Shown here one piece after another: positions 29,127 through 29,522 of a stretch of DNA of 64,000 nucleotides. The translations under genes were made by a program, and so were the position numbers. The DNA is taken from the NCBI GenBank assembly GCA_014913405.1, contig GCA_014913405.1_3931.1. One strand, written 5' to 3'. Under the pieces are notes generated by a model, which was given only the letters and a program-made list of their open reading frames with translations, did not search any database and was not told the DNA's origin. How positions within the stretch are numbered: position 1 is the stretch's first letter; each line of letters begins with the position of its first letter. The stretch comes from a phage.

Positions 29127-29522
29127 TTAGTGCTTCACAGCACCTATAATTAATCTAAGAAGGCCGCCTAACCCATTGAAAAATTTAAGGTAAGGCAGCC
29201 TTTTTCATTTTCAATTTGTGCAGGTAGCTGTATAGGTCTGCACAGGTGTCTCAAAAAATCTCATCGCCGGATAGAAAAATCATTTTCAAAACGTGCAGAC
29301 TCCGCTCAGGTCGGGCAAGAAAAATCATTTTAGAATTGTGCAGGTAGGTTTTTATGGGGAGCCAGACCAACCCCTCTCCCCCTATTACTCCCCCTCTCCC
29401 CAAAAGTCAAGAGAAAAATTTGTAGCGGATTGAAAAATAATTCTTGATTTGTGTTCTGTTTTGTGGTAGTCGTGTGCGCACGTTTCATTACAGTTTTTCC
29501 AAAAATATTTTTAAAATTTTTC

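Follow-up and report, generated by a model that had tools for sequence, protein, structure and literature searches.

We describe here an array of direct repeats in a non-coding gap of a Felix O1-like phage. No earlier description of this element was found in the searchable literature; arrays of direct-repeat binding sites as such are familiar. The repeats are genuine: three copies of a 25-base bipartite element, W5-TCATTT-N7-GTGCAG, stand on the plus strand, and the array is syntenic in the four genera that were sampled (Felixounavirus, Suspvirus, Mooglevirus and Kolesnikvirus). We read the array as a set of same-orientation predicted sites for a DNA-binding protein that would control transcription, a reading to which we give a probability of roughly 40%. 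Control of transcription appears to be more likely than a role of the repeats as replication iterons.

The DNA that was analysed (the window) is a stretch of 64,000 nucleotides. Its region 28300-30400 matches 238 phage records, the top ones being Salmonella phage BPS17L1 and Escherichia phage ECML-1 at about 95% identity, and judged by these matches the window is from a Felixounavirus, a Felix O1-like myophage of the subfamily Ounavirinae. The gap that holds the array (Table 1) is the longest between same-strand genes within the first 35 kb of the window. The macro gene upstream exists as two alleles, with a protein identity of only 42%, and the first downstream gene varies by lineage; the position of the array is unchanged despite both. 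From 29280 on, the window is 97-98% identical to wV8-type phages (97% to wV8), whereas the macro protein upstream is only 42% identical, which places a recombination junction inside the array. The accessory region further downstream has repeated modules of promoter, hairpin and ribosome-binding site (DR_1, DR_7 and DR_9 in wV8).

Table 1. Features of the gap, its flanking genes and the related site upstream, in positions of the window.
Feature	Position	Strand	Description
Lone related site	24729-24746	+	TTATTT-GTATTTT-GTGCAG; sole further TYATTT-N7-GTGCA match in the window
Lone related site with the sigma-70 promoter after the rIIB terminator (predicted)	24729-24760	+	TTGTAT-16-TATAAT; -10 at 24755-24760
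Macro-domain gene	28347-29126		Upstream of the gap; Pfam Macro; annotated as "phosphatase" in some records
Non-coding gap	29127-29614		488 bp; from the macro-domain gene to the first small accessory gene
Intrinsic terminator	29157-29212	+	Stem GGCCGCCUAACC / GGUAAGGCAGCC, then UUUUUCAUUUUC; closes the rIIB-to-macro-gene transcription unit
Repeat copy 1	29201-29227	+	TTTTT-TCATTT-TCAATTT-GTGCAG-GTAG; core 29205-29222; 15/15 core match
Repeat copy 2	29275-29301	+	AAAAA-TCATTT-TCAAAAC-GTGCAG-ACT; core 29280-29297; 15/15 core match
Repeat copy 3	29320-29346	+	AAAAA-TCATTT-TAGAATT-GTGCAG-GTA; core 29325-29342; 13/15 core match
C-rich tract	29356-29405	+	Minus strand reads as a G-quadruplex-type motif GGGGAGAGGGGGAGTAATAGGGGGAGAGGGG (as judged from its letters)
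Conserved block	29402-29478	+	AAAAGTCAAGAGAAAAATTTGTAGCGGATTGAAAAATAATTCTTGATT...GTTCTGTTTTGTGGTAGTCG; includes the fourth copy of the earlier note (29433-29458)
Sigma-70-type promoter P1 (predicted)	29500-29551	+	UP-like A/T-rich 29500-29522; -35 TTGACT 29523-29528; 17-nt spacer; -10 TAGTAT 29546-29551
First small accessory gene of the downstream run	29615-29998		Downstream of the gap

An earlier note on this DNA had listed four paralogous strings here. All four are present, at 29201, 29275, 29320 and 29433 (start-to-start distances of 74, 45 and 113 nt), the last two one base away from where the note had put them. Three are clear paralogs; the fourth is a separate conserved block that agrees with the repeats at 9 of 15 core positions (counted by hand), is without TCATTT and GTGCA, and shares with them mainly an AAAAAT.ATT stretch and TTTGTG. 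A search for repeats returned a 22-nt family (82-100% identity), a 39-nt pair lying 45 nt apart (74%) and a 30-nt pair lying 120 nt apart (80%). When the core TCATTTTCAANNNGTGCA was required to match at 13 or more of 15 positions, both strands of the 64 kb gave matches only at 29205, 29280 and 29325, compared to a mean of 0.6 scattered matches in Markov-simulated windows. Two matches to a 24-nt consensus were found with up to three mismatches, where 0.00 were expected, and the pattern TYATTT-N7-GTGCA occurs four times in the window, always on the plus strand, against an expectation of 0.21.

The description of the repeats as tandem suits certain relatives better than the window itself, in which Tandem Repeats Finder reports nothing. 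True head-to-tail arrays of four copies are found in Citrobacter phage Michonne (Mooglevirus; period 45 x 2.9 in the same program) and in Erwinia phage MM7 (Kolesnikvirus; copies spaced by 37, 37 and 39 nt, with a period of 37 x 3.8). Most Felixounavirus genomes also have four copies, the lineage of the window (BPS17L1, Si3 and ECML-1) being without the second, and the Suspvirus phage EcSzw-2 carries the array at the same place. Alignments make copy 2 of the window homologous to the third of the four copies in most relatives; copy 1 directly follows the terminator in all relatives, and copy 3 is the final array copy in all lineages. The spacings are near-fixed within a genus (mostly 73/39/45 in Felixounavirus, 75/41/45 in Mooglevirus and 37/37/39 in Kolesnikvirus), and this holds even where the sequence of the spacer is replaced.

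IMG/VR loci were collected via the macro gene, 30 from Ounavirinae and 11 from other viruses. The array was present in all 30 Ounavirinae loci, with 2-4 core matches each on the gene strand, 60-260 bp past the macro gene, and absent from all 11 of the others. In an alignment of 11 relatives the repeat cores are unchanged while the intervening sequence is varied or replaced, and in an 18-genome alignment the core columns are 94% conserved, compared to 83% for the spacer columns. When Felixounavirus is compared with Kolesnikvirus, all that BLAST aligns is 35 nt around one copy; this stretch, GGTCGGGCAAGAAAAATCATTTTAGAATTGTGCA at copy 3, is 91% identical in the Erwinia and Hafnia phages of Kolesnikvirus. 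In a set of 67 distinct copies, drawn from 31 genomes, variation is confined to positions between and outside the TCATTT and GTGCA blocks; the copies were gathered by requiring CATTT upstream of GTGCA, which makes the invariance of the blocks partly a product of the selection. The element in this set reads as an A5 or T5 run, TCATTT, seven variable bases, GTGCA and then G (T in Kolesnikvirus).

The earlier note had named a motif common at random positions as the outcome that would speak against its proposals, and the opposite is found: one cluster plus one weaker site per genome. With BLAST, a record has essentially a single location of the array (297 places in 292 records). The complete genome of MM7 has no matches besides the four tandem copies, and the part of Felix O1 that lies outside the window (24.5 kb) has none at all. 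Copies in host DNA would have hinted at a host regulator or a satellite, but 5,426 E. coli genomes and 72,556 plasmids gave no match. A pattern scan of IMG/VR with TCATTTTCAANNNGTGCA returned mostly single chance matches in unrelated contigs, and multiple matches outside Ounavirinae occurred at one locus alone (L087, from a giant-virus bin), where they belong to an A/T-rich repeat of about 175 bp that is unrelated. The element is not mentioned in the genome papers of Felix O1, wV8 and UAB_Phi87 or in a comparative Felixounavirus study, and no description of it was found in the searchable literature on promoters, origins, iterons, repeats and transcriptomes of Felix O1 and Felixounavirus, which also yielded no transcription-start data for any Ounavirinae phage.

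The terminator, t13 in the Felix O1 paper (PMC3185647), has a predicted RNA fold of -19.3 kcal/mol (z = -3.6). Its counterpart in wV8 has another stem sequence and a better fold (-26.5 kcal/mol, z = -7.7), and the records of wV8, ASO1A and KhF2 annotate a rho-independent terminator at this position. The U-tract of the terminator doubles as the left half of copy 1, and the tail CTTTTTYATTT is found after the terminators t2, t5 and t13. One might imagine, then, that the repeats are a terminator tail which was tandem-duplicated together with the sequence following it, a functionless scar kept by recombination at a mosaic junction. That copy 1 begins in the U-tract, that the same tail stands after two other terminators, that the copy number is 3 or 4 depending on the lineage, and that a recombination junction falls inside the array would all be in keeping with such an origin. 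We nevertheless consider a scar quite unlikely, since it would decay, whereas here the cores are better conserved than the spacers, the spacing is near-fixed over variable spacers, and the element persists in four genera whose intergenic DNA can otherwise hardly be aligned.

The C-rich tract that separates the array from the downstream conserved block behaves as a spacer cassette of conserved length and replaceable sequence. An alternative cassette, which aligns without gaps over most of the length, is present in finno, phiWec172, ph2-2 and many IMG/VR contigs. The alignments show that the two alternatives are not reverse complements of each other, and inversion was therefore rejected. Several metagenome contigs and one GenBank record stop in the variable cassette just past the last copy, which fits an assembly break at a strain-variable site. 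The conserved block that follows is nearly invariant in Felixounavirus. The stretch that had been taken for a fourth copy consists of A/T-rich sequence and a -35-like TTGATT, part of a weak promoter-like TTGATT-17-TAGTCG which lies below the threshold of the promoter scan and reads TTGACT-17-TATTCG in Mooglevirus. P1 is itself conserved (TTGACT-17-TAGTAT in Michonne, TTGACT-17-TATATT in MM7), and its homologue is annotated as a promoter in phage ASO1A. As predicted from its sequence, P1 is the promoter that restarts transcription into the accessory small-gene array.

Could the repeats act in RNA instead? In a read-through or antisense transcript, a motif that is structured or repeated might be a processing site, a small RNA or a sponge for proteins. 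The minus strand carries a -35-like TTGACT at about 29407-29412, from which the array could be transcribed leftward, and we also read on it, near 29250, a weak hairpin with a T-run behind it. Such a function seems most improbable, as the hairpin is not conserved in wV8-type genomes, searches of Rfam came back empty both at the gathering threshold and with E allowed up to 1, the fold z-scores of the repeats and of the C-rich tract (the latter on either strand) are not significant, and RNAalifold on 18 relatives found covariation only in the terminator (1 compensatory pair of 52). Coding was also rejected: across 11 relatives the open frames do not agree in reading frame, start or length and are broken by indels and by replacement of the cassette, and the small ORFs with which some records cover the array (wV8 gene 13, UAB_Phi87 genes 48-50) show no conservation as coding sequence. 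CRISPR arrays have near-identical repeats of 28-37 nt and unique spacers of about 30-40 nt, whereas the repeats here are imperfect, about 25 nt long and separated by 11-50 nt, with spacers that are homologous between genomes.

The proposal of the earlier note that the repeats are tandem promoters similar to those of phage T7 found no support. On neither strand do the three clear copies have a -35 or a -10 hexamer at a constant offset, and when every copy from the four genera was read by eye on both strands, no conserved pair of hexamers was found; nor is the sequence 3' of each GTGCAG conserved between lineages. In a consensus scan the only plus-strand sigma-70-like site of the gap was that of P1 (TTGACT-17-TAGTAT), which is outside the repeats. 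RNA polymerase has a footprint of roughly 75 bp, and the distance between copies in relatives is as low as 37-45 bp; independent promoters are thus disfavoured. TATAGG after copy 1 does resemble the TATAAT at 24755, but it is lineage-specific, being absent or changed in ECML-1 and in wV8-type genomes.

A further possibility is tandem promoters of a non-standard kind, at which a phage factor that reads TCATTT-N7-GTGCA in place of a -35 element would redirect the host RNA polymerase, as with the MotA box of T4. The motif does lie just upstream of a perfect TATAAT at 24729-24760, TATAGG follows copy 1 at the same distance in the lineage of the window, TATAGR is often found 9-10 nt past copies 1 and 4 of relatives, and the A/T-rich left half resembles the UP-element consensus. 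However, the two middle copies of relatives have nothing -10-like, and the -10-like strings that exist are without T at -7, vary in presence and stand at a distance of 0, 7 or 9-10 nt. The tight spacing argues against independent promoters of this kind as well, one cluster and one site per genome are too few for a temporal class, and the Felix O1 authors found no polymerase-modifying proteins (PMC3185647). We therefore regard this possibility as highly doubtful. The low number of sites also led us to reject a dispersed class of middle or late promoters. CTATARAG, tried as a late promoter after copies 1 and 4, is concentrated in the repeat field at 35.3-36.9 kb and is not dispersed, and the 12-mer TTGTGCAGGTAG, with up to two mismatches, gave 7 matches where 5.9 were expected, which is chance level.

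The related motif to which the earlier note had pointed at 24733-24760 is a real but weaker match, TTATTT-N7-GTGCAG, with 11 of 15 core positions (hand count). It has a T where every array copy has an invariant C, and for this reason we grade it only as a probable weaker member of the motif family. The site overlaps the -35 and the spacer of the promoter directly behind the rIIB terminator, and the AYO145A record annotates both this terminator and the promoter following it. Felixounavirus, Suspvirus and Mooglevirus all retain TGTGCAG and TATAAT, with changes in the bases between and around the two; in Kolesnikvirus the site is absent. Because the left half of copy 1 is a generic terminator tail, part of the likeness between copy 1 and the 24.7-kb site could derive from their shared U-tracts.

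The other suggestion of the earlier note, a regulator-binding array, fits every result obtained from the sequence: an asymmetric, bipartite element recurs in a single orientation at spacings that are near-fixed within a genus, the array is unique, and an extra, weaker site sits on a promoter. The centres of TCATTT and GTGCA are about 12.5 bp apart, roughly one helical turn, a distance that would suit a protein touching two successive major grooves. Such a protein would be sequence-specific and probably encoded by the phage. The array stands in a gap that is probably poorly transcribed, with the terminator of the rIIB-to-macro unit upstream and the sigma-70 promoter or promoters of the restart downstream. 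There the protein may assemble and, once assembled, may shut off or time both restart points, that in the P1 region and that at 24.7 kb. Both locations of the motif directly follow intrinsic terminators, where rightward transcription must restart, and both are placed as operators might be, the 24729-24746 site over the -35 and spacer of a conserved promoter and the array between a terminator and P1. In Felix O1, the accessory genes 16 and 20-22 were found by RT-PCR to peak at 5 min (PMC3185647), and a strong restart promoter is thus expected at the array locus; the RT-PCR classes on either side of the array are mixed and not cleanly different (PMC3185647).

Some observations weigh against binding sites. 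At 100-330 bp upstream of P1, the array is far away for a simple operator, and the 24.7-kb site, with its missing C and its absence in Kolesnikvirus, speaks against a binding array. No DNA-binding domain was recognised with Pfam and PHROGs in 20 neighbouring genes. Sites for host factors (DnaA, IHF, CRP, Fur, OmpR, NtrC, sigma-54 and the ops element of RfaH) were compared by eye with consensus sequences and rejected, the resemblances being partial and none of them holding across genera.

The repeats could also be iterons, bound by an initiator while the A/T-rich stretch and the strong promoter help to open the DNA, as modelled on the origins of lambda, P1, T4 oriE and the iteron plasmids. As in iterons, there are at least three direct repeats in one orientation that are unique in the replicon, and here these 3-4 repeats of about 25 bp are conserved across the subfamily. 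They occupy the longest non-coding gap of the early region, near an A/T-rich stretch, a strong promoter and a G/C-rich block, in a region that is both a mosaic junction and an assembly break point, and the lone related site on a promoter recalls the autoregulatory operators of iteron plasmids. Still, we think an origin of this type unlikely. There is no DnaA box (up to one mismatch) within 2 kb of the array, the cumulative GC skew tracks gene orientation with no extremum at the array in either the window or MM7, and gene orientation is unchanged there. The A/T-rich stretch (29490-29522) coincides with the UP region of P1 and is probably better explained as its UP element, and a field at 35.3-37.0 kb, with dozens of TGTTAAG at an 11-bp period, is at least as good a candidate for an origin. 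Among 30 proteins from the array surroundings and the replication module, none belonged to a recognisable initiator or DNA-binding family, an absence that is weak evidence. Replisomes of the T7-like type are not known to use iterons. The replisome of these phages is T7-like, with a primase-helicase and a T7-type polymerase (PMC3185647). A search of the literature found no paper that defines the origin of Felix O1-like phages.

A wider form of this idea, which we also hold to be improbable, is that the array is a cis-acting control centre, either an origin with iterons read by an unrecognised initiator or the nucleoprotein boundary of a terminal block of immediate-early accessory genes. In MM7, some 7.7 kb, or 9% of the genome, separate the array from the right end, which recalls the first-step-transfer boundary of phage T5. 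The array is not itself a genome end or pac site: the 444-bp terminal repeat at the right end of MM7 is 7.3 kb from it, and in the UAB_Phi87 record both ends carry the same 542 bp, which fall at 50142-50683 of the window, 21 kb away (the UAB_Phi87 paper gives a terminal repeat of 608 bp).

Felix O1-like phages serve in Salmonella typing, biocontrol and therapy. In the Felix O1 genome paper, both the timing of transcription and the way in which it resumes past the many terminators are described as not known (PMC3185647). The array, a single non-coding element found in the four genera sampled and exactly at one restart point, offers a cheap and concrete handle on this question. A 25-bp probe, AAAAATCATTTTCAAAACGTGCAGG, could pull out the binding protein, and mutation of the array in the phage would probe the timing of early genes as opposed to a role in replication. 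For phage engineering, the array region is best left undisturbed when accessory genes are swapped. Should the array turn out to be an ordinary operator array, the gain would be modest and limited to the Felix O1-like family.

Comparison with known systems shows several partial likenesses. The array shares with iteron arrays three to five repeats of about 20-25 bp in one orientation, found once per genome in non-coding DNA beside an A/T-rich stretch. Iterons are typically phased at 22 bp, whereas the spacing here is wider and less regular (37-75 bp), and in contrast to iteron origins no initiator gene, DnaA boxes or compositional switch was found here. With the A1, A2 and A3 promoters of T7 it has in common that a cluster of elements heads an early block transcribed by the host polymerase, just past a non-coding stretch; each T7 promoter, however, has good -35 and -10 hexamers and they are about 90-125 bp apart, while the repeats are without such hexamers, lie 37-75 bp apart and leave the good promoter (29523-29551) outside. 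In the PeSL of T4-type phages (promoter-stem-loop cassettes of hyperplastic regions), repeated regulatory modules similarly border small accessory genes and serve as recombination junctions, but TCATTT-N7-GTGCA occurs once, upstream of the whole block, and not between the accessory genes. Finally, the p4 sites of phi29, the C1 operators of P1 and the MotA boxes of T4 are likewise asymmetric or bipartite repeats near early promoters. The repeats have no sequence similarity to these regulator sites, most of them lie 100-330 bp upstream of the promoter, and no homologue of MotA/AsiA or p4 is recognised in Felix O1-like phages. Nonetheless, as in such regulator arrays, one site is positioned over a -35 and its spacer, and the array could in the same way time the early transcription of a virulent phage.

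Around the array of three plus-strand TCATTT-N7-GTGCAG copies, the window matches wV8-type phages at 97-98% identity downstream of 29280 (29280-29614), whereas upstream of it (29127-29280) the terminator and the first spacer differ, and the macro-domain gene preceding the array is a separate allele (42% protein identity). Judged by these alignments, the array contains a mosaic junction, with 29127-29280 on one side and 29280-29614 on the other. The terminator of the macro-domain gene, t13 of Felix O1, shares the tail C(C/T)TTTTT(C/T)ATTT with t2 and t5. The tail of t5 leads directly into the following gene's ribosome-binding site (TTTTTCATTTCAGGAG), and this sequence is near-identical to the start of the first array copy in wV8-type genomes.

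Coordinates of the features compared in and around the array, the repeat field and the tRNA region
Feature	Position	Remarks
Intrinsic terminators t2, t5, t13 (Felix O1 names)	24709-24730, 26503-26530, 29189-29212	rightward early unit
C-rich tract	29356-29405	immediately 3' of array
15-nt inverted repeat (AAAAGTCAAGAGAAA / TTTTTCTTGACTCTT)	29402-29416, 29517-29531	mirror of P1 -35 region
Leader modules (hairpin + ribosome-binding site)	29556-29623, 30063-30095, 31105-31176, 31968-32041, 33157-33254, 34995-35055	recurrent, ahead of small accessory genes
Non-coding repeat field, 1.65 kb	35330-36980	between last rightward accessory gene and first leftward gene
tRNA genes (n=24)	46624-51832	+ strand; each reaching Rfam gathering score
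Counterpart of identical 542-bp ends of UAB_Phi87 record	50142-50683	within tRNA region

Read on the minus strand, the C-rich tract is a canonical G-quadruplex motif, GGGGAGAGGGGGAGTAATAGGGGGAGAGGGG. In many relatives its place is taken by an unrelated cassette, G-rich on the plus strand, which aligns gap-free over most of its length; VpaE1_ev035 shows an internal duplication of 28 nt here. The ends of four IMG/VR contigs and of the phage EC106 record fall within this position or close to it. The inverted repeat that mirrors the -35 region of P1, the sigma-70-type promoter downstream of the array, puts a minus-strand TTGACT facing the G-rich tract and the array. This site (TTGACT-17-TAATAG in the window, TTGACT-17-TAGCCT in the alternative cassette) could be a weak leftward promoter.

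In the non-coding field, YTGTTARR (TGTTAAGA) motifs occur by the dozen with an 11-bp period; in its left part they are reversed (CTTAACA, the reverse complement), and CTATARAG and CTTAAAAG motifs are also numerous there. Direct TGTTA repeats with an 11-bp spacing are also similar to the ArcA boxes of the host. In Erwinia phage MM7, a Kolesnikvirus, both record ends carry a 444-bp terminal repeat, and identical 11-nt TGTTAAGA repeats lie inside and adjoining it. The linearisation point of the BPS15Q2 record falls within the region matching the field. The field is a candidate region for packaging, for the genome ends or for an origin. The ends of the UAB_Phi87 record, by comparison, map amid the tRNA genes, which have the large terminase gene (52280-53881) directly downstream of them; the UAB_Phi87 paper gives a direct terminal repeat of 608 bp, by run-off sequencing. 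Felixounavirus ends would therefore be placed differently from those of MM7, which lie in the TGTTAAGA field; alternatively, the end assignment of either UAB_Phi87 or MM7 is wrong.

The leader modules preceding the accessory genes, some of which include a promoter-like site, correspond to DR_1, DR_6, DR_7 and DR_9 as annotated in wV8, and to direct repeats of 57 bp and 39 bp described in the Felix O1 paper. A similar arrangement is that of the promoter-stem-loop cassettes in the hyperplastic regions of T4-type phages.
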